Positions 1 to 23,090 of a stretch of DNA of 64,000 bases are shown here, piece by piece. This stretch comes from a phage. The notes under the pieces were generated by a model. That model had not been told where the DNA came from and made no database searches. It saw only the letters and a program-made list of their open reading frames with translations. The DNA lies in the sequence record PZ386957.1; one strand, 5' to 3'. Position numbers and translations under genes: made by a program. Positions within the stretch are counted from its first letter, which is position 1. The number at the start of each line of letters is the position of its first letter.

Positions 1-2940
<2,940 letters not shown>

Positions 2941-9382: not shown

Positions 9383-10969
9383 ATGAAAACTACCAAAGAA
9401 CTGATGGAAAAATGGTCTCCGCTGCTGGAAAACGAAAAACTGCCGGAGATTGCAACCGCATCTAAACAGAAACTGGTTGCTAAAATTCTGGAATCTCAGG
9501 AAGCAGATTTTGCAGTAGATCCGATTTATAAAGATGAGAAAGTAGTAGAAGCGTTTGGTGGCTTTATCGCAGAAGCAGAAGTTGCTGGCGACCACGGTTA
9601 TGACGCACAGAAAATTGCCGCAGGTCAGATGAGCGGTGCTATCACCAACGTAGGTCCGGCTGTAATCGGTATGGTTCGTCGTGCTATTCCTAACCTGATC
9701 GCATTCGACATTTGCGGCGTTCAGCCGATGAGCACTCCGACTAGCCAGATCTTTGCAATCCGTTCCGTATACGGTGCTGATCCTCTGGCACAGAATGCAA
9801 AAGAAGCATTCCATCCGATGTACTCTCCGAATGCGTTCCATAGCTCTCTGGCAGCAAAAGACGCGACCGCTCAGTCTCCGACTGGTACTGCATTCGCACA
9901 ACTGACCATGTCTCAGGCGATTCAGGTTGGCGATATTGTACATCACACCTTCGCGGAAACTGGCATTGCTTATCTGCAAAACGTTTCCAGTCAAGCGGTA
10001 ACTCCGTCTAAACAGGGTCAGGAATCCGAAGATGAAGTTGTAATGAAACTGATCGAAGATGGTAAACTGGCTGAAATCGCTTTCGGTATGGCTACTTCCA
10101 TCGCGGAACTGCAAGAAGGTTTCAACGGTTCTCAGAATAACCCGTGGAATGAAATGTCCATGCGTATTGACAAACAGGTTGTTGAAGCGAAATCTCGCCA
10201 ACTGAAAGCCCGTTACTCTATCGAAGTTGCTCAGGATCTGCGTGCTATCCACGGTATGGATGCTGATGCCGAACTGAATGCTATTCTGGCTAATGAAGTT
10301 CTGCTTGAAATCAACCGTGAAATCGTTGACGTAATCAACTTTACCGCTCAGGTTGGTAAGACTGGTATGACTCAGACCGTTGGTTCTAAAGCTGGTGTAT
10401 TCGACCTGCAAGATCCGATCGATACTCGCGGTGCTCGTTGGGCTGGTGAATCCTTCAAATCTCTGATCTACCAGATCGACAAAGAAGCTGCTGAAATCGC
10501 TCGTCAGACTGGTCGCGGTGCTGGTAACTTCATTATCGCTTCCCGTAACGTTGTAAACATTCTGGCTTCTGCTGATCAGGGTATTAGCGTTGCTATGCAG
10601 GGTGCTGCTCGTGGTCTGAATACCGACACCACCAAAGCTGTTTTCGCTGGTGTTCTGGCTGGTAAGTATAAAGTATTCATCGACCAGTATGCTCGTCAGG
10701 ACTACTTCACCGTAGGCTACAAAGGCGACAACGAAATGGATGCTGGTATCTACTATGCGCCGTATGTTGCTCTGACTCCGCTGCGTGCAACTGATCCTCA
10801 GTCCTTCCATCCGGTTCTGGGCTTCAAAACTCGCTATGGCATCGGTATTAACCCGTTTGCAGACAGCAAGTCTCAGTCTCCGAGTGCTCGCATTACTTCC
10901 GGTATGTTGAGCAAAGACAGCGTAGGTAAAAACGCTTACTTCCGCCGTGTATGGGTTAAAGGCTGCTAA
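9383..10969 (+). CDS. 23: Major capsid protein
   Basis: 528 aa; extensive identity with T4 gp23 (GPAVxGMVRRAIPNLIAFDICGVQPM, ATSIAELQEGFNGS, GRGxGNFIIASRNVVN, YFTVGYKGxNEMDAGIYYAPYVALTPLR). Confidence 0.97.
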   Translation: MKTTKELMEKWSPLLENEKLPEIATASKQKLVAKILESQEADFAVDPIYKDEKVVEAFGGFIAEAEVAGDHGYDAQKIAAGQMSGAITNVGPAVIGMVRRAIPNLIAFDICGVQPMSTPTSQIFAIRSVYGADPLAQNAKEAFHPMYSPNAFHSSLAAKDATAQSPTGTAFAQLTMSQAIQVGDIVHHTFAETGIAYLQNVSSQAVTPSKQGQESEDEVVMKLIEDGKLAEIAFGMATSIAELQEGFNGSQNNPWNEMSMRIDKQVVEAKSRQLKARYSIEVAQDLRAIHGMDADAELNAILANEVLLEINREIVDVINFTAQVGKTGMTQTVGSKAGVFDLQDPIDTRGARWAGESFKSLIYQIDKEAAEIARQTGRGAGNFIIASRNVVNILASADQGISVAMQGAARGLNTDTTKAVFAGVLAGKYKVFIDQYARQDYFTVGYKGDNEMDAGIYYAPYVALTPLRATDPQSFHPVLGFKTRYGIGINPFADSKSQSPSARITSGMLSKDSVGKNAYFRRVWVKGC

Positions 10970-11049
10970 TCCATTCTAACATAAAATCAGGTCGGGTGCA
11001 ATGCCCGACTTATCATAAACTTTATGACAGTGTAAAGTGTTAATTCCAA

Positions 11050-11085
11050 AGGGTAGATCCGAAAGGGTCTGCCCTTTTTGCTTTT
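11050..11085 (+). terminator. Rho-independent terminator after gene 23
   Basis: 10-bp stem (two G.U pairs) AGGGTAGATC...GGTCTGCCCT followed by TTTTTGCTTTT. Confidence 0.7.
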
Positions 11086-11103
11086 ATGCGGATTATAACT
11101 CGT

Positions 11104-11111
11104 TATAAATA
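11104..11111 (+). promoter_or_regulatory. T4-type late promoter TATAAATA upstream of the 23/24 insert module
   Basis: Exact TATAAATA 38 nt upstream of the ATG at 11149. Confidence 0.65.
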
Positions 11112-11148
11112 AGGATGCAAGCCTATATTCTAAGGGGAGCGAAAATAG

Positions 11149-11457
11149 ATGCACACACTTATAAAGACCAAAACTCCCGCCACGTCTGCACCAGTAAGCT
11201 GTATTCATAGTACGCATATGACTGTACAAATGACGGTAGAAGGTGTAAGGCAAGGGCAAAAAGTCATTGCAGAGGCTGTTTTAGAAGGTTCTCTGGATGG
11301 CAAAGGTTGGTTCACTATCTCAGAGTTGAAAGCAGATGGTAATGAATATGCAACTGACGGTGGAGCGTTTGAAACATTATGGTCATTTATTAGGGCGAAA
11401 GTAAAATCAATTTCTATTGATTCTACTGTCACAGTGTATCTTGCGAAACGGGGGTAA
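11149..11457 (+). CDS. Hypothetical protein (102 aa), first gene of the late insert module between 23 and 24
   Basis: ORF with GGGGAG RBS; no family recognised. Confidence 0.6.
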   Translation: MHTLIKTKTPATSAPVSCIHSTHMTVQMTVEGVRQGQKVIAEAVLEGSLDGKGWFTISELKADGNEYATDGGAFETLWSFIRAKVKSISIDSTVTVYLAKRG

Positions 11458-11460
11458 TAC

Positions 11461-13176
11461 ATGAAGCTGAATCCAGATGCAGTAATTAACGCTGGTTCCG
11501 TTGGTGGTGGCGGTTCCGGTGGTGGTATTCAGGTCGGTACTAATGTACCGTGTGGTATTCAGAATAATCACCGTTTCGAAAACGAGCAGGAACGAGACGC
11601 GTATTTTGCAACTAAATTCCCGGAACTGGAACGACTGAAAACAATTATTGTTTGCGGCGGTAAACTCCAGCTTTGGACTGGTGCAACTGCGCAATCACCT
11701 TATGATAATTCTAAATGGGTCGATATGACCTGGGTGATTCAGGGTGAACAAGGTACGGCAGGTGAAAAGGGTGATGCCGGAAGAGGCATTGCCAGAATTG
11801 AAGCACAAATCTCGCCGGATGATGCAAACTGGACACTTGAAATCACGTACTCTGATCAGACACAAGAAAGTCTCGTTTTCCCCGTACCGGATGTGTTGGC
11901 GAACGTAGCACAGCGTTTAACGGCGTTGGAAGTTCGATGGACGACTACCGGAAACCCTATTAACAATCTAGACGCAACATTACAACAAGGCCGTTACCCC
12001 GTAGATGTTACTACCTACGGTAAACCGCAAATGATGGCAAATAAGGGGTCTGTAGATGTATATGTCGTGGATAGTAGCGTTATTCAGGTTGTCCATTCTA
12101 TTGATGGTGGTGTGTACTCTCGCACGCGACACAATGGTAGTTGGACAGAGTGGGTATCTAAGGGATCTGGTGGTGGTTCCGGTGGTGGCTTAAATGGTGA
12201 TCAAGAAGCATTGCTCGCCAGCTTAGGTACACGTTTACCGGAAATTTCGCCAAATACCCGCGATCTAAACGCACTTCAACATCAAGGCCGTTTTTGCTAC
12301 GATGAACAATCCGCTAACCGTCCAAATGGTGTCATCACTCATGGGTCAGTAGATGTTCATGCTTGCAAAGACCATGTATTGCAAATCGCTACCAGTATTG
12401 AAGGGGTAATGTATCACAGGGCTTTAGACAAAGCAAATGGTACATGGAGTCAATGGACACAGATTAGTGATGCTACGGGAGGTGCTACCATCTATGCATT
12501 CCCTCGCGCGGCTAGTGTCTTTACGACTTCTCAGAGTCTGTTAGATGCAGCTAATCCCGGTGCTGGATTCTTTTATATTCCGTGGAAATATGTAATCCAT
12601 GATAACTATGGATGTACACCGCAGATTAAAGAGCCAAACAGACAAGCTGATGCTGATCACTGGTGGATTGCCCCGAAATCCGGTAGTTATGATATGGAAT
12701 TGATGCTTGATGTAAGTTTCATCAAGACACAAGCAACGATTCCGGTAATGCTGGTTGTTACTGCATGGCATCGTGACTCACAGGGTCATGAACACATGGC
12801 AGCACGTTACAATATGCCGTTAGATGTTACACAGAAAAACCAGAAAACGAAATCCGCTAAACTCCGACTTAATCAAATCTTGCACGGTGATATGGTCCGT
12901 TGGCAGGTTGAATTTACTGGAGGTAACTGGTCGCAGGATGACAACCCAGATGTTTCCTTTGTTCCTTTCCGAACAATGCTGATGGTCGATGAGGCAGAAT
13001 ACGACACAGCAAAACGGATCGGGCTATTGGCTTATAACACATGGGCTAATTTCCATGCTAAACCCGGTTTAGCTGCAACCGTAATTGAAGATCAGGGTAA
13101 AGCCCGTCTGAATGCGGTTAAATGGAATGTTGCAATTGATAGTATCGAGGCAACTGTACAACCAGGCCAGCCATAA
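11461..13176 (+). CDS. Fibrous protein with Gly-rich linkers, short collagen-like G-X-Y stretch and two knob-like repeats
   Basis: 571 aa; GGGGSGGG and GSGGGSGGG linkers; GEQGTAGEKGDAG; two ~70-aa repeats (LQQGRYPVD...GSVDVYVV...YSRTRHNGSWTEW and LQHQGRFCYD...GSVDVHAC...YHRALDKANGTWSQW) resembling tail-fibre knob domains. Confidence 0.8.
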   Translation: MKLNPDAVINAGSVGGGGSGGGIQVGTNVPCGIQNNHRFENEQERDAYFATKFPELERLKTIIVCGGKLQLWTGATAQSPYDNSKWVDMTWVIQGEQGTAGEKGDAGRGIARIEAQISPDDANWTLEITYSDQTQESLVFPVPDVLANVAQRLTALEVRWTTTGNPINNLDATLQQGRYPVDVTTYGKPQMMANKGSVDVYVVDSSVIQVVHSIDGGVYSRTRHNGSWTEWVSKGSGGGSGGGLNGDQEALLASLGTRLPEISPNTRDLNALQHQGRFCYDEQSANRPNGVITHGSVDVHACKDHVLQIATSIEGVMYHRALDKANGTWSQWTQISDATGGATIYAFPRAASVFTTSQSLLDAANPGAGFFYIPWKYVIHDNYGCTPQIKEPNRQADADHWWIAPKSGSYDMELMLDVSFIKTQATIPVMLVVTAWHRDSQGHEHMAARYNMPLDVTQKNQKTKSAKLRLNQILHGDMVRWQVEFTGGNWSQDDNPDVSFVPFRTMLMVDEAEYDTAKRIGLLAYNTWANFHAKPGLAATVIEDQGKARLNAVKWNVAIDSIEATVQPGQP

Positions 13177-13187
13177 GGGGGCGTTTA

Positions 13188-14114
13188 ATGGTTAGTGTAG
13201 AATCGAAAATCCGGCAATTACAAAACGGATTTGTTCAAGGCGAAATTACCCAGTTTACTGGTAATGAATCGAATGCTTTGATGGAAAGTGATGTTGAACG
13301 AATTTCTAATTCAATCAACACGGAACTAATCGATCCGGTTATTGATTTTGTTATTGCGTGCGATGACGTAATTTCAGAATCAGCGACGGAAGCACTTAAA
13401 GCGGCGGAAGCCGCTAAAAATCTTGCTGATGTAGCAGATGCCACGGCAGGGCAGTCTATGAGTAAAGCGACAGACGCGCTAGCTAAAGCAAATCATGCTG
13501 ATTCAGAAGCAACAAGGGCGCATGATCGATTAGATAAACTCAATATTCCACAAATCCCAAACTTAGACGGTCATACGTGGAATTGGCTACCGCGTTCATT
13601 TGACAGCGTATCAATTAAATTGGGTAACGGTGTTACATTAGCAGATGCGCAGCAAAAACCGCGTATTATATGGACACCAATTAGACAAAACTTTGAAACA
13701 GGTCGATATTATCTCGAAGGTAGATTTGAAGCCCGTTTTAAAGTCATGCTGATGGATTGGATTCAAACTCCCGGTTCGGGTGGTCATATTTTCTATTTGG
13801 GAGGTACTCAAAGTCTCGCATCATTTAACGGTAGGATTTATCCTCAAAACTTGTCAAATGATGTTATGAAACCTATGAGTATTCAGGTTAACGCATATTC
13901 CGCTAAAGATACCCAAATGATTTTCGGTGCTAGCGCCGATGCATCACTTTCTAATTCTCAGGAAGTGAAATTGGCTATTTTGGCAGATATTGGTTCAGAT
14001 AGATTCGACCGTTATGGCGATCCAGTTTATGTTGATTTGGTTATGACGTTCCAGCGTGACAGTGAAGGTAACTTTGGTTTTGGTAATAATTTATTCCCAT
14101 CTATTTCACCTTAA
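13188..14114 (+). CDS. Fibre-like protein, paralog A (shared N-terminal module with 14166-15521)
   Basis: 308 aa; N-terminal segment ISNSINTELIDPVIDFVIACDDVISE matches ISQTINDALIDPVVNFIAECDAVIVE in the next gene; Ala-rich helical region then distinct C-terminal domain. Confidence 0.75.
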   Translation: MVSVESKIRQLQNGFVQGEITQFTGNESNALMESDVERISNSINTELIDPVIDFVIACDDVISESATEALKAAEAAKNLADVADATAGQSMSKATDALAKANHADSEATRAHDRLDKLNIPQIPNLDGHTWNWLPRSFDSVSIKLGNGVTLADAQQKPRIIWTPIRQNFETGRYYLEGRFEARFKVMLMDWIQTPGSGGHIFYLGGTQSLASFNGRIYPQNLSNDVMKPMSIQVNAYSAKDTQMIFGASADASLSNSQEVKLAILADIGSDRFDRYGDPVYVDLVMTFQRDSEGNFGFGNNLFPSISP

Positions 14115-14124
14115 TTGTCAATTT

Positions 14125-14143
14125 TCGGGGCGCTATGCCCCGA
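14125..14143 (+). other. Hairpin TCGGGGCGCTATGCCCCGA between the two fibre paralogs
   Basis: 7-bp GC stem seen in sequence, no T-tract; lies between the stop at 14114 and the RBS of the gene starting at 14166. Confidence 0.4.
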
Positions 14144-14165
14144 TCTAATTACTGGAGAATGCTTT

Positions 14166-15521
14166 ATGCTAAGAAACCGTTTAAAAGCTGTACCGTCTTT
14201 TACTCCTGGCGAAATGGGTAACATCACCACACAAGATGAGCATTGCTTGATGGAACATGATATTCCTATCATTTCACAGACTATTAACGATGCTCTAATT
14301 GATCCGGTTGTTAATTTTATTGCGGAATGTGATGCCGTAATTGTTGAAGGTATGGGAACTATTGCCGATACCGTCGATATTATCGATAAAAAAGCCGATA
14401 ATGCAATTTCAATGGCACACTATGCTGATACTCGATCCGGTGAGGCTATGACTAAGGCAACCGAGGCCAAAACAATAGCAGACGAGAGCAAAGCAGAAAA
14501 TACCGCTTTAAAAGCCCGTATCGACACCATAGAGCCAGAAATCGGTGTAATTAATGGTAACGTAGCAGAAGCACAGAAAAACGCGTCAGACGCGCTCTCA
14601 AGCGTTTCTACGCTAAATCAGAAAGTAGACGAAGTAAAAACCGTCGCTGATAATGCAACCGTGGAGATCACTGGTATTAAACCACAAGTACAAAGTCTGG
14701 AATCCGTTGTATCAGATGCCTATAGTGGGATTGCTGTATTAAGCAAAGATGTAGAGAAATTAAAAACTGATGTACAGAGCGCAGATACAAAGGCCGCAAG
14801 CGCAGGAACTAAAGCAGGTGAGGTAGAGACACAACTCAATGCATTATCACCGCGCGTGGATACCGTAGAAAGCGATTTGGCACAAATGCAAACCACGGTC
14901 AACGGCATCAACGACAAAGTAAATGATACTACGGTTAAAGCAGATAATGCGGTAAGCAAAGCGACTGCGGCAGAGCAAAAAGTAGACTCGCTGGAGCCAA
15001 ATGTTCAAACCGCTACGCAGAATGCTGAAACAGCTTTGACAACGGCACAAGCGGCAAGTGGTGAAGCAGCAACCGCAAAAGCTAAAGCAGAAGATGCGGT
15101 CACTGAATCAGGTGAGGCTAAGTTATTGGCAGAAGAAGCCAACAATAAAGCAACCACAGCAGAATCTAATATCAATACTCTTACTAGTCGCGTTTCTACT
15201 CTGGAAACCGATAAAGTTAAGATCCAGCGTTTTACATTTATGGAAGACCGTCGAATCGGTGGCGGTGGTACAACTTTCCGACGTATTAACGTACCTGGCG
15301 TTAAAGTTGGTGATACAGCCACGTTACAAATGTATGAAGATTTTCAACACAAAAGCCTATTAATTTTGCAAGCTCATGTGATTGATGCTGATACTATCGT
15401 AACATCTGTATATAATTTGTCAACTTCCCCGATGAACATCGGCAAGAAAATGCTAGTTACTATAATTAGCTCAAATGATGTAATTACGCAGGATGTAGAG
15501 GCGGTTGTATCGTCCAACTAA
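14166..15521 (+). CDS. Fibre-like coiled-coil protein, paralog B
   Basis: 452 aa from ATG at 14166 (GGAG 8 nt upstream); track start at 14115 overlaps the hairpin. Long Ala/Thr/Lys/Glu-rich heptad-like region, small beta-rich C-terminal domain. Confidence 0.75.
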   Translation: MLRNRLKAVPSFTPGEMGNITTQDEHCLMEHDIPIISQTINDALIDPVVNFIAECDAVIVEGMGTIADTVDIIDKKADNAISMAHYADTRSGEAMTKATEAKTIADESKAENTALKARIDTIEPEIGVINGNVAEAQKNASDALSSVSTLNQKVDEVKTVADNATVEITGIKPQVQSLESVVSDAYSGIAVLSKDVEKLKTDVQSADTKAASAGTKAGEVETQLNALSPRVDTVESDLAQMQTTVNGINDKVNDTTVKADNAVSKATAAEQKVDSLEPNVQTATQNAETALTTAQAASGEAATAKAKAEDAVTESGEAKLLAEEANNKATTAESNINTLTSRVSTLETDKVKIQRFTFMEDRRIGGGGTTFRRINVPGVKVGDTATLQMYEDFQHKSLLILQAHVIDADTIVTSVYNLSTSPMNIGKKMLVTIISSNDVITQDVEAVVSSN

Positions 15522-15547
15522 TTTAATTCATCAATGGAGGTATTAAC

Positions 15548-15700
15548 ATGAGCAAGAAAATAGATGGCTATGTTAAATTAACTCAAAAACAATATGATGA
15601 ATTGATGTTAGCGATTGCATATGCAATTATTCGTTCTGATTTGGCAATTAGTTTAATTCACAAAACTAATCGTAGTATTGAGAACGTAGCCAGCAAATAA
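15548..15700 (+). CDS. Small protein (50 aa), below the ORF-track length cutoff
   Basis: ATG preceded by GGAGG; MSKKIDGYVKLTQKQYDELMLAIAYAIIRSDLAISLIHKTNRSIENVASK; followed by a terminator. Confidence 0.5.
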   Translation: MSKKIDGYVKLTQKQYDELMLAIAYAIIRSDLAISLIHKTNRSIENVASK

Positions 15701-15706
15701 CCTTTT

Positions 15707-15738
15707 AGGGGGAGTCCTTCGGGACTCCCTTTTCTTTT
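15707..15738 (+). terminator. Rho-independent terminator (GGGAGTCC-TTCG-GGACTCCC + T-run)
   Basis: 8-bp stem with TTCG loop followed by TTTTCTTTT. Confidence 0.75.
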
Positions 15739-15745
15739 ATAAATA
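15738..15745 (+). promoter_or_regulatory. T4-type late promoter TATAAATA upstream of gene 24
   Basis: Exact TATAAATA 37 nt upstream of the gene 24 ATG. Confidence 0.7.
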
Positions 15746-15781
15746 CATCATATCCATAAAACAAATACAGGATTCATAAAC

Positions 15782-17029
15782 ATGAAAGTAACCAATCAAT
15801 TTAATGAACTTTTGCGAGAGTCCACTACGTCTGTAGCAAACCAGACAGCACGCCCACAATTATTATCACTGACTCGCGCGGTTAATAACCTGATTTTCTC
15901 TGACTTAGTAGCAATCCAGCCAACCGAACAACCTGTGTGCGCTCTGTATGGCCTACGCTATCTCAATCGTGATGGTCAGATGACTTATCGTAGTGCAGCT
16001 ACTTACGGTGGTGCAGCAGGTGATCGCACAGGGATCGAAGAATTTAACAAAGAAAAAGATTATCAAGCGGGCGATCTGTTTGACTACGAAAACGTGGTTT
16101 ATCAGGTTGTTGAGGCTGGCGTAGTTAGTGCTGGCGCAACTACTGATGAAGAGGCAATTTTCAAAGGTGTAATGGCTAACAAAATCCGTTTCTATAGTGA
16201 TTGTGCACCAACGGAATATTTCGAAGATGCAAACACCGAAATTTCCACAACTAGCATGGATTTTGATAAATGGCAGGTTAATGTAGGTTCTCGTAAACTG
16301 AAAACCGAATTTACTACCGAGTTTATGCAGGATCTGGAAGCAAACCAGATGAACTCCGAAAATGCAGTAGTGGATCTGTTGGCTACGGTAGCCTCAGAAG
16401 AAATTAACAAAGATATCATGCAGAAGTTGATCACTATATCAACTCGTTATAAAATTAAAGGTGTAACCCCAGATGGTGTTCTTTCTTTGGTGGGTGTACA
16501 GGATGCACCGAAACAAGCGCGTGAACTCTACAGATATGCATGTGAAATGAGTAATCATATGCTTCGCACTTCGTCCTTTGGTGGCACTTACGTTCTTGCG
16601 TCTTCCCGTATAGTCGGACTTCTCCAGTCTACTGGATGGATGGAAGAAACTGATAATGCATTAAGTGAAGGCCGTTTACGTTGTGGCTTAGAAGTCTATG
16701 CAGATACTGTTACCCCGTTTGATTATATGCTCGTTGGTTGTAAACATATGATCGGTGACATGGAAAGCATTGGATCTCTTTTCTATTCTCCATACACAGA
16801 AGCCGATGGCGCTGGTGCATATAAGAGCGTAATTGATCCGAATAGTTTCAACCATAAAGTAGCAATCATGAATAGATATGCACTTTCAGTTAACCCATAC
16901 ACCGCCAAACAAGATCAAGATGTACATACTCCAGTTAAAGGCGATGAATGGAATAAACTGGCAGGTCGTTCAGAAATGTCTTATATTCTGGGTATTGAAC
17001 TGCCACCGCTTGAAATTGATAATGCCTAA
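15782..17029 (+). CDS. 24: Head vertex protein
   Basis: 415 aa; collinear with T4 gp24 (NELLRESTT, SANPYT near the C-terminus). Confidence 0.93.
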   Translation: MKVTNQFNELLRESTTSVANQTARPQLLSLTRAVNNLIFSDLVAIQPTEQPVCALYGLRYLNRDGQMTYRSAATYGGAAGDRTGIEEFNKEKDYQAGDLFDYENVVYQVVEAGVVSAGATTDEEAIFKGVMANKIRFYSDCAPTEYFEDANTEISTTSMDFDKWQVNVGSRKLKTEFTTEFMQDLEANQMNSENAVVDLLATVASEEINKDIMQKLITISTRYKIKGVTPDGVLSLVGVQDAPKQARELYRYACEMSNHMLRTSSFGGTYVLASSRIVGLLQSTGWMEETDNALSEGRLRCGLEVYADTVTPFDYMLVGCKHMIGDMESIGSLFYSPYTEADGAGAYKSVIDPNSFNHKVAIMNRYALSVNPYTAKQDQDVHTPVKGDEWNKLAGRSEMSYILGIELPPLEIDNA

Positions 17030-17617
17030 CTAAATACCAATCCAATCTAATGTAGATCCGCCCAAGATTTTTTCAACGGCGGATCTATTTTCCTGATGAT
17101 ACAAGTTAAAGCATGGTATCCCATGTCTACGAGCAACATAAACAGCAATTCGAGTTCCTCCCGAAACGATTCCATTTACTTCTTTCGCCCAGAATATCAC
17201 ACAATCCACAGGATCATCAAGTGTCTCACCCAAGACTTGAGCAACATTTCTAGAAAACAGATTTTGCATGTATAACGGTATAGAACGAGGATTATCATAA
17301 ACATGTTCTAATTCATCCATTGCCAGATTCTTTTGTTCTAAAGTTTGCCAAGCAATAACATCATGACCGTTATGCTTATGGTCATAAAACTTCCAATTTG
17401 GTATGAATATTTTTCTATAATCAGGGTCGTAATACTTCATGAAAGCATTATCCATACCGTAAGCCCCTCCAGAATGAGCTATAACGCGATTTTCTGACAA
17501 TACCCTCCCAATGGTACTAGCCAATACTAAAATGTCGCTAGGCGCTTTTCTAGAGCCGATTAAAGCACATCTACGAAGTGGTTTTACTCCAAATAGATCT
17601 TGTAACTGGTCAAACAT
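17030..17617 (-). CDS. DprA/Smf-like Rossmann-fold protein (putative ssDNA-binding recombination mediator)
   Basis: 195 aa; motifs LIGSRKAP, VIAHSGGAYGMDNAF, FSRNVAQVLG, IVSGGTRIAVYVARRHGIP resemble the DprA core; RBS GGAGG. Confidence 0.6.
   Translation of the reverse strand: MFDQLQDLFGVKPLRRCALIGSRKAPSDILVLASTIGRVLSENRVIAHSGGAYGMDNAFMKYYDPDYRKIFIPNWKFYDHKHNGHDVIAWQTLEQKNLAMDELEHVYDNPRSIPLYMQNLFSRNVAQVLGETLDDPVDCVIFWAKEVNGIVSGGTRIAVYVARRHGIPCFNLYHQENRSAVEKILGGSTLDWIGI
17043..17085 (+). terminator. Terminator for gene 24 embedded in the 3' coding end of the convergent minus-strand gene
   Basis: Perfect 10-bp inverted repeat TAGATCCGCC...GGCGGATCTA with 15-nt loop followed by TATTTTCC. Confidence 0.5.
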
Positions 17618-19191: not shown

Positions 19192-20424
19192 TCACGCAGG
19201 AGGCGCTTCACGGATGCGTAGCACCCGCTCTAAGATCTCGCGATCAAGTTTGTGGAACTCTTTGGAATTGTACATGAAACCGTTTCGTGATTCCATGCAA
19301 ATGCAGTCGCTATATTTTTCTTCTGCCGCTGCAATCGTCTCCAGATCACGCGCGTATCGGCTTGTTTCATAAACATGACGTTCGCGCCATTCTAAACCAG
19401 CTTCATTGAATTTAACAATCTCATCGAATACCCACCAGCCTATATAAATGAAGGATGTTTTACGCCACGGGATCGGGTGAACATATCGCCACATTTTGTG
19501 TAGGGAATCAACAATGGTCATTGTGCATTTTCGGCTTTCCTGATAGGAAAGTTCTACTGTCGCACTACCAATAGTCTGGTAAAGTTTAGCGATACACCAG
19601 AAAGACGCATGATCATCATGTGTTGCTCGTTCTTTAAACAGATGACCATCTGGCATAATGGCAAACCCTTCTAATACCTCACCTACTTCTGTTCCAAGTA
19701 AAGTCGGTTTAGCTTGTCCTTCGCGTTGCAGATACCAATTATATTTGATTGTTAGTGCTGGCATACCGCTAGAATCGCCTACAACGTCCTCTGACACGCT
19801 AAACGGCAATAGAATCTCCTTACCTACAGCTACGATTTTTGACGCTGGTACATCGCTTTCTGTGCGCAATGATGCAAGCATTACTTTAACCGATGAACTA
19901 TCAGCCGATGCCTCATTTTCGCCCCATACTTTAACAGTATACACACCATTATCAGAATTGCTAAAATCCTGAATTGTTAAATTCTCTTGTATTCCTAAAT
20001 CTTCTCCACCTTTACTCCATTCATAATGGATCACGTATGAATCGGAAGGAGCTTTACCGCCTGAATATGAAACCTTAGTATGCAATACTACGTCAGTGTG
20101 AGTAGGAACATAGAAATGTGATGGTTCGGTGATCGTCACAACTAATGCTGTTTCGTCCATGCGAAGTGCATCGCTGGTTACTTCTTCGCCTGAATCGGTA
20201 TCACGCACCGTAATTTTATATGCACCTGCATTTGCGGCAGTGGCATTAGCAATGCTTAAAGTTGCTGTATCCCCTTCATGTGGTTTATTATCTTTTGTCC
20301 ATGTATAAGTCAGATTGCTGGGTAATGGATCGCCTCCAACCGCTTCAACCGTCGCAGTTAGTGTAAATGCATCACCAGGAAGAAAACATGCTTTATCTGA
20401 CTTGAGTTTAACAGTAAATGCCAT
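19192..20424 (-). CDS. hoc: Hoc-like outer capsid protein, short paralog (Ig-like domains + Hoc capsid-binding C-terminus)
   Basis: 410 aa; Ig-like repeats; C-terminal RYVHPIPWRKTSFIYIGWWVFDEI...ESRNG matches the T4 Hoc C-terminal domain (YVHPLP...GWWVMDEI...ESRNGY). Confidence 0.85.
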   Translation of the reverse strand: MAFTVKLKSDKACFLPGDAFTLTATVEAVGGDPLPSNLTYTWTKDNKPHEGDTATLSIANATAANAGAYKITVRDTDSGEEVTSDALRMDETALVVTITEPSHFYVPTHTDVVLHTKVSYSGGKAPSDSYVIHYEWSKGGEDLGIQENLTIQDFSNSDNGVYTVKVWGENEASADSSSVKVMLASLRTESDVPASKIVAVGKEILLPFSVSEDVVGDSSGMPALTIKYNWYLQREGQAKPTLLGTEVGEVLEGFAIMPDGHLFKERATHDDHASFWCIAKLYQTIGSATVELSYQESRKCTMTIVDSLHKMWRYVHPIPWRKTSFIYIGWWVFDEIVKFNEAGLEWRERHVYETSRYARDLETIAAAEEKYSDCICMESRNGFMYNSKEFHKLDREILERVLRIREAPPA

Positions 20425-20469: not shown

Positions 20470-23013
20470 TTAAAATAGTTGAGTACCATCAACCAGATAA
20501 CCGTTTCGGGATTCAAGAACATGCGTATTGCTATAATGATGCAGCGATGCCGCAATAGTCTCGACCTCGTCCGGGTAACGGGTATGTGTAAAGTCCTCTA
20601 ACCAGTTAAGACCTTCGCGGTTACAACGATCAATCTCATCCATTACCCAATACCCTTGATACTGGAAGGATGTACGTCGCCATGGGATCGGGTGTACATA
20701 TCGCTTAAGCTGTGCGGTAGTGAATACCACACGGATTTTTTCAGTATGAGCAACATGACCCGCGTCATCGGTGATCTCTGCGTAGTAAGTCGCCTGGTCT
20801 TTATCCTTGCTGATTTGATCTTTCGGGATGGTATAAGTTTTGTCATTCGCGCCCTGAATAACGCTATCTTTACCGCCCTGTACTTTATGCCACTTCCAGC
20901 TAACTACCTTATTCGGCGTGATATGTTCCGCGTCAGCCTTTAACACAATATCCTGATCCTGACCTTCTTTAGCCACCACATCCACTGGATGTTGAAGGAT
21001 ATTAATGTTAGTATGTGGATTCAGCACAATAACAGCCGGATTAGTTTCTAGAGTACGCTCTGCGGCAGTAACTACAGCCGTGTAAGTCCCCGCATCGGAT
21101 GGTTTAGCGTGATCAATTATCAGCACCTCATCATTAGCGCCCGGAATAATCTGACCATCTTTTTTCCACTGATACGATGGTTTAATGCCGATAGTGTTCG
21201 TCGCTTGCGCATGTAGCATAATCCGCTGGTTGTAGTTGACATTATTACTTTGCGGGTGAATCGTAATTTGTGTATCATTAGGAACTACAGTCGGATCATC
21301 GGTGATCAGTACGCGCACGGCATCGGACATTTTAGATACACGATGATCGCCAAAGCCAGCCGATACACGGCAAGTATAAACGCCAGTTGATGACAATTGC
21401 GCGTGATCTTCACCATATACATTTCGTTGTTCAATTCCGGTTGGGAATAAATCCTCACCATCTTTAAACCAACGGTAACGAACTGGCAAAGCATCATTCG
21501 ACGTTGCTGTAATGCTTAACGCCCACTGTCCACCGGAACGAATGCTAACCGCTTTTGGTTGTACCGTGATGTTTAGCGTAGATTTAGAATCATCTACGGT
21601 AACTTGAACAGGATTAGATTCTTTAGTGATTCGGTGGTTCTGAATACCCATAGAAACTACGCACTTATACTGTCCTTCGTCGGCTTTTGTGATCGCGGAG
21701 AAATGTAGCGCATTAGACGTTTTACCCGGCAACAATTCATTATCTTTATACCACTGATAAACAAGTTTATAATGCTCGTAGTCAGTGGTCGCCTGACAAA
21801 TCAATGATTGAGCGGAACTAACACGAACATTAGTTAACTGCTGCGGTTGCTGTGTGATTCGAATTTCAGGCGCAGCACCGACCAGCAAACTTGCTTCTTC
21901 TGTGTCTACTGTTATATTATCACCGTAGGTCAATTTGGCTTTATATTTCGCCTGATTATATTCCTGAGTAGCCGGAATAATATGCAACTCGTTATTAACC
22001 GCACCAACAATCGGTTTAAATTCAGGATCGCCGTTTTTCTGGACATACCATTGAATTTTTACCGGAGAATAGTTGGTTGCATATTCAACGCGGAATAAGC
22101 CAAGAGCACCAGCGCCCACATTAAGTGTCTGTGGTTGCTGAATAATACGGAAGAAAGCATGATCACTGATGATCACATTACAATCTTTCGAATATACGGT
22201 AGTCTCTGCTTGTCGAACTTCCATTCGCCAGATTCCCGCGTCTGCTTTAGTAACATGGGTAATAATCAGCGATTGACCGTTTTGATCCGGTACAATCTTG
22301 CCGTTATGAATCCACACATACTCAATCGGGCGAGTAGTATCATCTGACACCACATGAGCGACTAACTCCAGTCGACCATCTTCTGGAATAGTTACAGACG
22401 ACTCGTATTGTTCAGTAATATGAACTTTCGGTGCATCGGTGTTTTGTTCCACGACTACCGGTTCGATCCAATAGTGAGAACGTGCATCATCCTGTACAAA
22501 TACTTTACAAGTGTAGTTACCAAAATCCTCATAACCTACACGATCAACGTGTACGGAAATGTTATTACGAATCTTACTCGGATCTAGTAATACATGGTTT
22601 TTATACCAGATATAAGCCGCATTATGATTATCTTCGATAAACGGGGTAGCGAAAATATCCAGTGATTCACCTAAACGCTTGTAAATGTACGTCGGAGATT
22701 GGTCTTGTGGAGCAATAAAGATTCGACGTTCAACAAGGATTGGTTTAATATCCACATATTCCTGCGGATTTTCTTTGAGTTTTACACGCGCGGTGTAAGT
22801 ACCGAACTGCTGATCTGTCATTTCTGCAATATACAGAGATTGATCTGGTTCGGTAACTTGTTCCGCTGGTACACTCTGCCCGTTTAGCTTCCATTCTACA
22901 ATATAGTCTTTAAAATCTGCGACACTAACAACCAGTCGCAAAACCAATTCATGACCTACTGATGCATAAACCGGACCTACTGTTTGATGTAAGATATTGA
23001 TTTTATCAGACAT
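20470..23013 (-). CDS. hoc: Hoc-like outer capsid protein, long paralog (~8 Ig-like domains)
   Basis: 847 aa from ATG at 23013 (AGAGGA RBS); repeated ~90-aa Ig-like units; C-terminus KRYVHPIPWRRTSFQYQGYWVMDEI...ESRNGYLV as in Hoc. Confidence 0.85.
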   Translation of the reverse strand: MSDKINILHQTVGPVYASVGHELVLRLVVSVADFKDYIVEWKLNGQSVPAEQVTEPDQSLYIAEMTDQQFGTYTARVKLKENPQEYVDIKPILVERRIFIAPQDQSPTYIYKRLGESLDIFATPFIEDNHNAAYIWYKNHVLLDPSKIRNNISVHVDRVGYEDFGNYTCKVFVQDDARSHYWIEPVVVEQNTDAPKVHITEQYESSVTIPEDGRLELVAHVVSDDTTRPIEYVWIHNGKIVPDQNGQSLIITHVTKADAGIWRMEVRQAETTVYSKDCNVIISDHAFFRIIQQPQTLNVGAGALGLFRVEYATNYSPVKIQWYVQKNGDPEFKPIVGAVNNELHIIPATQEYNQAKYKAKLTYGDNITVDTEEASLLVGAAPEIRITQQPQQLTNVRVSSAQSLICQATTDYEHYKLVYQWYKDNELLPGKTSNALHFSAITKADEGQYKCVVSMGIQNHRITKESNPVQVTVDDSKSTLNITVQPKAVSIRSGGQWALSITATSNDALPVRYRWFKDGEDLFPTGIEQRNVYGEDHAQLSSTGVYTCRVSAGFGDHRVSKMSDAVRVLITDDPTVVPNDTQITIHPQSNNVNYNQRIMLHAQATNTIGIKPSYQWKKDGQIIPGANDEVLIIDHAKPSDAGTYTAVVTAAERTLETNPAVIVLNPHTNINILQHPVDVVAKEGQDQDIVLKADAEHITPNKVVSWKWHKVQGGKDSVIQGANDKTYTIPKDQISKDKDQATYYAEITDDAGHVAHTEKIRVVFTTAQLKRYVHPIPWRRTSFQYQGYWVMDEIDRCNREGLNWLEDFTHTRYPDEVETIAASLHHYSNTHVLESRNGYLVDGTQLF

Positions 23014-23090
23014 TTGATATCCTCTTTTTAATTGCATAACGGAACTACAATTAAAATCATAACAAATATTTCACATCTACACTCTCAATA

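Follow-up and report, generated by a model that had tools for sequence, protein, structure and literature searches.

For the structure and adsorption of myoviruses, the T4-type phages serve as the reference system. Both accessory fibres and head fibres are familiar kinds of structure, and vertex or head fibre systems include gp8.5 of phi29, the penton base and fibre of adenovirus, and P31 with P5 of PRD1. To our knowledge, a fibre set encoded within the head gene cluster of a T4-type phage has not been described before. The vertex fibres of phage 7-7-1 are used in first contact (PMC12796354), and the HFTV1 turret has a XepA-like beta-sandwich ring on a capsomer, into which a trimer is inserted by its N-terminus across a symmetry mismatch (PMC12494034). 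In their crystal structures YomS and XepA are pentameric discs (PDB 6i5o and 6i56); XepA has been proposed to be lytic, and the authors speculated on a vertex location (PMC6834076). Here we describe a block of five open reading frames (ORFs), A to E, that lies between the genes for the major capsid protein gp23 and the capsid vertex protein gp24 in a T4-like phage of the RB49 group (Krischvirus, Straboviridae; record PZ386957.1), of which a 64-kb stretch, hereafter the window, was analysed. The block is probably an ancestral, dispensable late operon encoding an accessory virion fibre system with A as its adaptor, and it is highly likely that B, C and D are virion fibres.

The phage closest to the window is Shigella phage JK32 (92.6% identity over the window's first 9 kb, compared with about 88% for GEC-3S-type phages). 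The block is flanked on the left by gp23 (9383-10969; annotated, 95% identical to that of JK32) and on the right by gp24 (15782-17029; annotated, 83% identical), and all the features from one flank to the other are on the plus strand. A terminator-like hairpin 3' of gp23 (11048-11077; a 13-pair stem followed by a T-run), which is conserved in GEC-3S and JK32, forms the boundary of the module and is followed by a T4-type late promoter sequence, TATAAATA (11104-11111), upstream of A to E. ORF A (11149-11457) encodes 102 amino acids (aa) and is predicted to be a small beta-sandwich. ORF B (11461-13176; 571 aa) is a multi-domain fibre as judged from its orthologues and from Foldseek searches with an AlphaFold2 (AF2) model. 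ORF C (13188-14114; 308 aa) is predicted from Pfam, AF2 and orthologues to consist of an anchor, a coiled coil and a beta head, and ORF D (14166-15521; 451 aa), on the basis of Pfam and a heptad scan, of an anchor, a segmented coiled coil and a beta domain. The 50-aa ORF E (15548-15700) is followed by a strong terminator (15707-15732) and then by a second copy of TATAAATA (15738-15745), the apparent late promoter of gp24.

Between the promoter at 11104 and the terminator at 15707 there are no further copies of TATAAATA, and neither an internal late promoter nor a strong terminator was found within the block. The single copy, placed before the first gene, suggests that A to E form one late transcription unit. 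Since TATAAATA is not enriched in the window (eight copies against 6.5 expected), the promoter was called from its position and from its conservation in relatives; GEC-3S, which is without the module, still has it, along with the ribosome-binding site and the first few codons of A. An earlier note on this DNA, made from the sequence alone, had proposed a late-promoter operon, and the promoter, the five ORFs and the terminator that follows them were all found where it had placed them. Its ORF lengths of 102, 571, 308 and 50 aa also stood, but the 452 aa given for D did not, as translation from the ATG at 14166, with a GGAG at 14154, gives 451 aa.

The distribution of the block was then considered. 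Among 50,697 GenBank phages B is carried by six (JK32, UPWr_E1, Brandy, SSG23, SFHK24 and G2248), and the carriers inspected were all Krischviruses. The neighbouring structural genes are covered by about 59 GenBank records, and the comparison of presence and absence that the earlier note had proposed as a check showed that the module is kept in 6 of about 59 Krischviruses. Scans of IMG/VR and metagenomes with alignments of B and A gave few extra loci (2, 3 and 4). The same note had named a tail-fibre location of these genes in relatives as what would speak against it; the block lies between gp23 and gp24 in each of the 11 module-bearing loci, and A, B and C are present in every one, making them the conserved core of the module. 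The D position is variable. Beyond C, Brandy and several metagenomic contigs have no D-type paralog; there is one in the window (451 aa), in JK32 (614 aa, annotated 'tropomyosin-like') and in locus L014 (230 aa), and there are two, of 982 and 382 aa, in L003. The last of these loci (metagenomic, ERZ27260015; L003 3498-9061) carries an expanded module, in which C is 454 aa long with a larger head, the 982-aa coiled-coil paralog has the anchor, and the 382-aa paralog is without the anchor and shares the distal coiled coil and the Pro-rich C-terminus. In the window, reading of the sequence revealed a GC-rich hairpin (CGGGGC-GCTAT-GCCCCG, 14126-14142, with no T-run) in the 51 nt that separate C from D, at the very point at which the variable D cassette starts; it may serve in attenuation or RNA stability, or be a scar left by recombination.

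Phages without the module proved informative about its age. In GEC-3S the promoter region and first codons of A persist with the ATG changed to ATA, a 34-aa ORF matches B residues 414-441, and a 45-aa ORF matches C residues 261-298; in its DNA the spacer is a collinear mosaic of window positions 10900-11157, 12649-12770, 13986-14085 and 15547-15881. Compared with Brandy, these pieces are 88-96% identical and are parted by two clean deletions, one of about 1.5 kb and the other of about 1.2 kb. The collinear remnants of A, B and C argue that the module is ancestral and the short arrangement derived, the module having been lost by deletion in most cultured relatives (by two deletions in GEC-3S). 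The word 'inserted', used for the block in the earlier note, thus has to give way to loss elsewhere, and a recent horizontal acquisition was ruled out by a GC content matching that of the flanks together with the remnants in module-less phages. Nor did the 50-aa ORF keep the place in the module that it had been given: E is also present in module-less phages (64% identical to an ORF of GEC-3S; assigned to phrog_16600), and is therefore a backbone gene, co-transcribed with the module and outside it. Broken copies occur as well. B of Brandy is split into two coding sequences (L002 4548-6277), the start of C in an IMG/VR contig is frameshifted at an A-run (L007, about 9715-9775), and the corresponding fibre gene of Stenotrophomonas phage IME13 is split into pieces of 72 and 139 aa (L017 3789-4654); either a dispensable function is decaying in these genomes or the deposited sequences contain errors. 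The pattern of presence and loss suggests that the module is dispensable.

That these are chance ORFs was ruled out by orthologues with intact frames at identities as low as 40%, and by ratios of nonsynonymous to synonymous divergence (dN/dS) of 0.07-0.19 against three relatives, in the same range as those of gp23 and gp24. A, B and C are thus under purifying selection. The divergence is not uniform along the block, as the DNA identity between Krischviruses is 88-95% for A and gp23 and about 70-76% for B and C. Synonymous divergence (dS) jumps sharply at the A/B boundary, from 0.2-0.4 in gp23 and A to 1.3-2.9 in B and C (window 9383-14114 against L001, L006 and L013). The dS of gp24 was likewise high in the comparison with JK32, at 1.5, but no more than 0.54 in that with L006. 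The dS pattern points to swapping of the B-C segment among alleles by recombination, and a conserved proximal part with a variable distal part would fit a constant base with exchangeable fibres.

Protein B carries most of the evidence for a fibre. It has 22 full-length orthologue clusters (40-92% identity), and its AF2 model has a mean predicted local distance difference test (pLDDT) score of 63, with about 80 in the knobs and about 85 in the C-terminal domain; the first 110 residues are unmodelled. The protein begins with the peptide MKLNPDAVINAG and a Gly/Ser linker (residues 1-24; 11461-11532), which we propose to be a docking peptide and which is its most conserved part (mean pairwise identity 86%; the knobs reach 54-61%). 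Gly/Ser runs occupy residues 15-22 and 235-243. Residues 95-109 (11743-11787) consist of five G-x-y triplets (GEQGTAGEKGDAGRG) in which the glycines are invariant in the family alignment; with only five triplets and no Pfam Collagen match, this is a collagen-like motif and not membership of the collagen family. It is followed by an internal repeat of about 70 aa (residues roughly 165-235 against 265-340; 34% identity, E 3e-15), corresponding to two knobs at residues ~165-232 and 263-338 (11953-12474) that are separated by a Gly/Ser linker and a helix. Foldseek searches with the B model matched two phi812 baseplate chains (E 6e-10 and 3e-9), the R1 pyocin fibre 6cl5 (E 2e-8) and the short-tail-fibre binding domain of cyanophage A-1(L). 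The C-terminal head (residues ~345-530; 12493-13050) is predicted to be a TNF/C1q-like jelly roll, as more than 40 TNF-family chains were matched with probability 1.0, E 1e-5 to 4e-4 and target template modelling (TM) scores of 0.45-0.73. A Pfam search with B gave no match, Phage_tail_NK included, while some orthologues have a faint precomputed match to XkdV_N (PF27308); YomR, a fibre of SPbeta with repeats and a knob, resembles B weakly and over one knob (hhalign E 0.016). The knob-like repeats that the earlier note had read in B from its sequence are therefore borne out as predicted knob folds with a trimeric-type head, and the structure prediction that it had suggested gave fibre-like models for B and C, while D has a fibre-like sequence pattern.

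C and D are related to one another at their N-termini (33% identity over 135 aa, E 9e-18), with a strongly conserved core of about 50 aa. An N-terminal module shared by these two proteins, with differing C-terminal domains, had been proposed beforehand, and the alignment upholds it. In C the anchor (residues 14-62) is followed by an alanine-zipper coiled coil (~63-120) and a beta head (~125-300); the AF2 model has a continuous helix at residues 33-117 and a head with pLDDT 80-90, and across 17 orthologue clusters the anchor is 80% and the coil 61% conserved. Pfam finds Alanine_zipper in both proteins and Tropomyosin also in D, where the heptad pattern extends over about 290 aa, compared with about 60 aa in C, and is broken by L-x-P-x-V roughly every 50 residues. 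If fully helical, the D coiled coil would be about 40 nm long, and it ends in a beta domain of about 95 aa. Sequence matches of D in the PDB are weak and are to the trimeric coiled coil of reovirus sigma-1. We infer that C and D are coiled-coil fibres, predicted to be trimeric. Profile-profile comparison of the heads of C and B detected no shared domain. The anchor follows the pattern F-x-x-G-x-[IM]...LME-x-D[VI]..IS..IN..LI-x-PV[IV]D[FY], and its profile, run against 1.84 billion representative proteins, gave seven true matches, all from this module; the sole other match, P0051, was rejected as a spurious repeat protein. As the anchor exists only where A and B do, it may bind a component of the module or a Krischvirus-specific site.

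The model of A is a confident beta-sandwich (pLDDT about 80-90) with seven strands of at least three residues. Its best fold match is to the pentameric discs YomS and XepA, and it could be superposed on YomS or the XepA C-domain; the resemblance is to the YomS-like disc only, and the N-terminal domain of XepA is absent from A. The prediction was made with A and C joined by a linker, from which no contact between the two is claimed. Homologues of A with about 36% identity were found in Aeromonas phages of the 44RR2.8t/31 group (Biquartavirus) and in Stenotrophomonas phage IME13 (Tulanevirus). Here too gp23 is followed immediately by the A gene, ahead of gp24, so that the slot is common to three genera of Straboviridae, and the 36% identity of A between genera compares with 46% for both gp24 and gp22, a divergence compatible with long vertical residence of A in this slot. 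The gene that follows A in 44RR2.8t codes for a fibre of 288 aa in which Pfam finds Phage_fiber_rpt and an Sf6-type TNF-like knob (Phage_tail_NK). This fibre is unrelated to B save for its first ten residues (MILNPKAVLN, compared with MKLNPDAVIN in B) and a Gly/Ser-rich stretch. The fragmented fibre of IME13 starts MILNNKAVLN, and in a high-GC metagenomic contig whose A is 43% identical the next gene starts MDLIPRSIFG, four bases past the A stop codon. The comparison of A with the N-terminal peptide of the gene that follows it covers three lineages. Thus A is constant and conserved like gp23, whereas the fibre is exchanged except for its N-terminal peptide, which suggests a socket and plug: A would be the constant partner of a constant virion structure, and the fibres exchangeable plugs recognised by the short peptide. 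An A-like domain also occurs as the N-terminus of a 594-aa GDSL/SGNH hydrolase in Pseudomonas phage Orisa03 (L016 8974-10758), where the gene comes directly after the lysis cassette and is followed by genes for a collagen-repeat protein and a pectate-lyase-like protein.

These features can be combined in a working model of the fibre system. A would form a ring-shaped base on the virion through its YomS/XepA-like beta-sandwich, and a trimer of B would dock into this base by the conserved N-terminal decapeptide, the flexible Gly/Ser linker absorbing the symmetry mismatch. B would then project its short collagen-like segment, two pyocin-type knobs and TNF-like binding head. The short C and the long D, as fibritin-like trimeric coiled coils, would join the B complex by their private N-terminal anchor and display other binding heads. 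The heads would bind host-surface or environmental polymers, probably glycans, giving a reversible first contact that would widen or tune the host range, while T4-type long tail fibres would still carry out the committed step.

The earlier note had placed the fibres on the capsid or neck and not on the tail; the evidence divides between capsid and tail and gives the neck no support. If B, C and D are virion fibres, the capsid is the site that we favour, at a little under even confidence; the tail is a possible site, and the neck or some other site is unlikely. On the capsid our best guess is the gp24 pentamer, which we regard as a tentative choice. The full arrangement, with A as a penton-like cap in the form of a YomS-type pentameric disc on the gp24 vertex, B plugged into it by MxLNPxAV(I/L)N, and C and D branching off by their anchor, is doubtful in its entirety. 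In favour of the capsid, the gene order gp23-A-fibre-gp24 recurs in three genera of Straboviridae and A tracks gp23 in conservation; the only XepA-like ring reported in a solved virion is moreover the base of the HFTV1 capsid turret (PMC12494034).

Several observations weigh against the proposed system or its placement on the head. The likeness of A to YomS and XepA is one of fold only and jelly rolls are common; the A-family profile did not recover YomS or XepA from the PDB at E<=10, and an hhalign comparison of A (A6) with YomS gave a probability of 0.2%. Pfam, PHROGs and PDB sequence searches with A to E gave no informative family besides the coiled-coil models. The AF2 models are of monomers, from shallow alignments (about 20 sequences) with pLDDT of 63 and 71, and the oligomeric states given here are putative. 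The likeness of the decapeptides is not significant by BLAST alone (E 0.32), and the fusion to a GDSL esterase in Orisa03 fits A as a carbohydrate-binding module equally well. Where a gene lies is no more than a rule of thumb for where its product attaches, the fibre-domain matches of B are all from tail structures, and yomS and yomR lie in a tail cassette. XepA has been reported to be absent from mature PBSX particles (PMC6834076). In the literature we found no virion proteomics, microscopy or genetics on A to D, and in the papers searched, on Krischvirus, JK32, SSG23, Straboviridae head fibres, 44RR2.8t and XkdV, there was no description of the module genes, all GenBank copies of which are labelled hypothetical.

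Some of these points lead to the alternative that survives best, namely auxiliary tail fibres, in which A with B, and C and D, would sit on the baseplate or tail and the genes would lie between gp23 and gp24 simply because this intergenic site happens to be permissive. Phages phi812, phi92 and G7C have side fibres or additional receptor-binding proteins of this kind. Every confident domain match of B is to a tail or baseplate fibre, and to this can be added the faint XkdV_N match of its orthologues, the tail-fibre repeats and tail-needle knob of the Aeromonas counterpart, and the surroundings of the A-like domain of Orisa03 among tailspike-like genes (GDSL esterase, collagen-like, pectate-lyase-like). 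The products of yomS, yomR, yomQ and yomP are likewise annotated as tail proteins (PMC6834076). However, the slot between gp23 and gp24 has been kept in three genera despite replacement of the fibre body, A matches gp23 in conservation and in dS rather than B and C, XepA-like rings have so far been seen in a virion on a capsomer only, and T4-type phages usually put fibre genes next to the genes of the structure that carries them. As none of these points is decisive, we consider auxiliary tail fibres possible, if on the whole unlikely.

An arrangement as extra neck whiskers, with C, D and perhaps B as fibritin-like fibres on the collar that sense the environment or assist the assembly of tail fibres, would account for the fibritin layout of C and D, in which an anchor is followed by a coiled coil segmented by short Pro/Gly breaks and then by a small C-terminal domain. 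It is made improbable by the finding that BLASTP of C and D against wac of JK32, taken as a proxy, shows no N-terminal similarity, and by the 589-aa fibritin that relatives already encode beside their neck genes; in addition the anchor occurs only together with A and B, and neither C nor D has a C-terminus of foldon size. That the proteins are not virion components at all, A being a lysis or export accessory and B to D released or cell-associated decoys, adhesins or exclusion factors, draws on the cytotoxicity and export of XepA and its absence from PBSX particles (PMC6834076) and on the A-like gene directly after the lysis cassette of Orisa03, but is very improbable given that A lacks the N-terminal XepA domain needed for toxicity (PMC6834076), that signal peptides are not evident by eye in the translations of B to D, which have typical virion-fibre architectures, and that the operon lies within the head morphogenesis cluster under a late promoter.

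Other genes in the window bear on the head or adjoin it. Two adjacent Hoc-like proteins of 410 and 855 aa with Ig/PKD domains are encoded on the minus strand (19192-20424 and 20470-23037), and the pair is also present in JK32 and in metagenomic relatives; two different Hoc paralogs on one capsid are unusual. They presumably occupy hexamer centres, leaving the gp24 pentamers free. Within gp23, a patch at about 9700-9980 has 77-87% DNA identity to relatives, against 92-99% in the remainder of the gene, and may correspond to a surface-exposed, fast-evolving region of the capsid. A 195-aa DprA-like gene (17030-17617, minus strand; weak Pfam DNA_processg_A match, and DprA-like in the GEC-3S annotation) immediately adjoins the stop codon of gp24, which is on the other strand. 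At the edge of the window, positions 1-2940 (plus strand) hold a 979-aa ORF with large-terminase domains (Terminase_6N in two stretches from residue ~388, Terminase_6C at 768-940), where two overlapping TerL coding sequences are annotated in JK32. T4 gp17, at 610 aa, is far shorter, and the extra length points to a fusion or to an inserted element such as an intein or one of homing-endonuclease type.

If the proposed fibres are on the virion, module-bearing Krischviruses carry host-range determinants that are now annotated 'hypothetical', and SSG23, UPWr_E1 and JK32 are under development for therapy. Brandy and GEC-3S form a natural presence/absence pair for testing the contribution of accessory fibres. 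A portable socket and plug also suggests a means of swapping fibres that would be useful in engineering. Should the reading of A prove true, the YomS/XepA family, solved in structure but unexplained, would gain the function of a fibre base and become testable in that role, and a T4-type head would bear vertex fibres in the style of adenovirus or PRD1.

The nearest precedent for the proposed architecture is the HFTV1 turret, which has the organisation that we suggest for A plus B. A would resemble it indirectly, by way of XepA; HFTV1 differs in being an archaeal siphovirus with a hexameric ring on hexamers and a head that is a deacetylase, not a fibre. The vertex and head fibres of other viruses are trimeric, with a short conserved N-terminal tail, a shaft, a distal knob and a five-fold base, as proposed here, while PDB searches with A to D gave no sequence or fold match to proteins of 7-7-1, phi29 (gp8.5), adenovirus or PRD1. 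In SPbeta, yomS is directly upstream of yomR, the same order as A then B. However, the cassettes yomS-yomR-yomQ-yomP of SPbeta and xkdV-xkdW-xkdX-xepA of PBSX belong to a Bacillus siphovirus and a defective prophage respectively, lie in tail/lysis regions and not between capsid genes, and showed no sequence-level homology to the module, the likeness of YomR to B being weak and limited to one knob.

Among T4-type accessory proteins, fibritin (wac) has the layout predicted for C and D, with an N-terminal anchor, a segmented alpha-helical coiled coil and a C-terminal domain, and is a dispensable accessory fibre, as they would be. The anchor of C and D is nevertheless unrelated to the wac N-terminus, the genes of C and D are not beside the neck genes, the foldon of about 30 aa compares with beta domains of about 180 aa (C) and 95 aa (D), and PDB sequence searches with C and D gave no fibritin match. 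Hoc resembles the module proteins, as proposed here, in being a dispensable, surface-exposed, adhesin-like accessory encoded near gp24, but is a monomer built of Ig domains in a row, with a capsid-binding domain at its C-terminus, and A to D have no Ig matches in Pfam. With the knobs of R-type pyocins and myophages and of the Sf6 tail needle, B shares a fold that it carries as two tandem knobs plus a TNF-like jelly roll; it differs from those tail fibres in having no Pfam match, a gene away from the tail-fibre locus, and A as its partner. This locus differs from all of these systems in that the putative fibre operon sits within the head gene cluster of a T4-type phage, in its YomS-like partner, in an anchor private to its coiled coils, and in its widespread recent loss.

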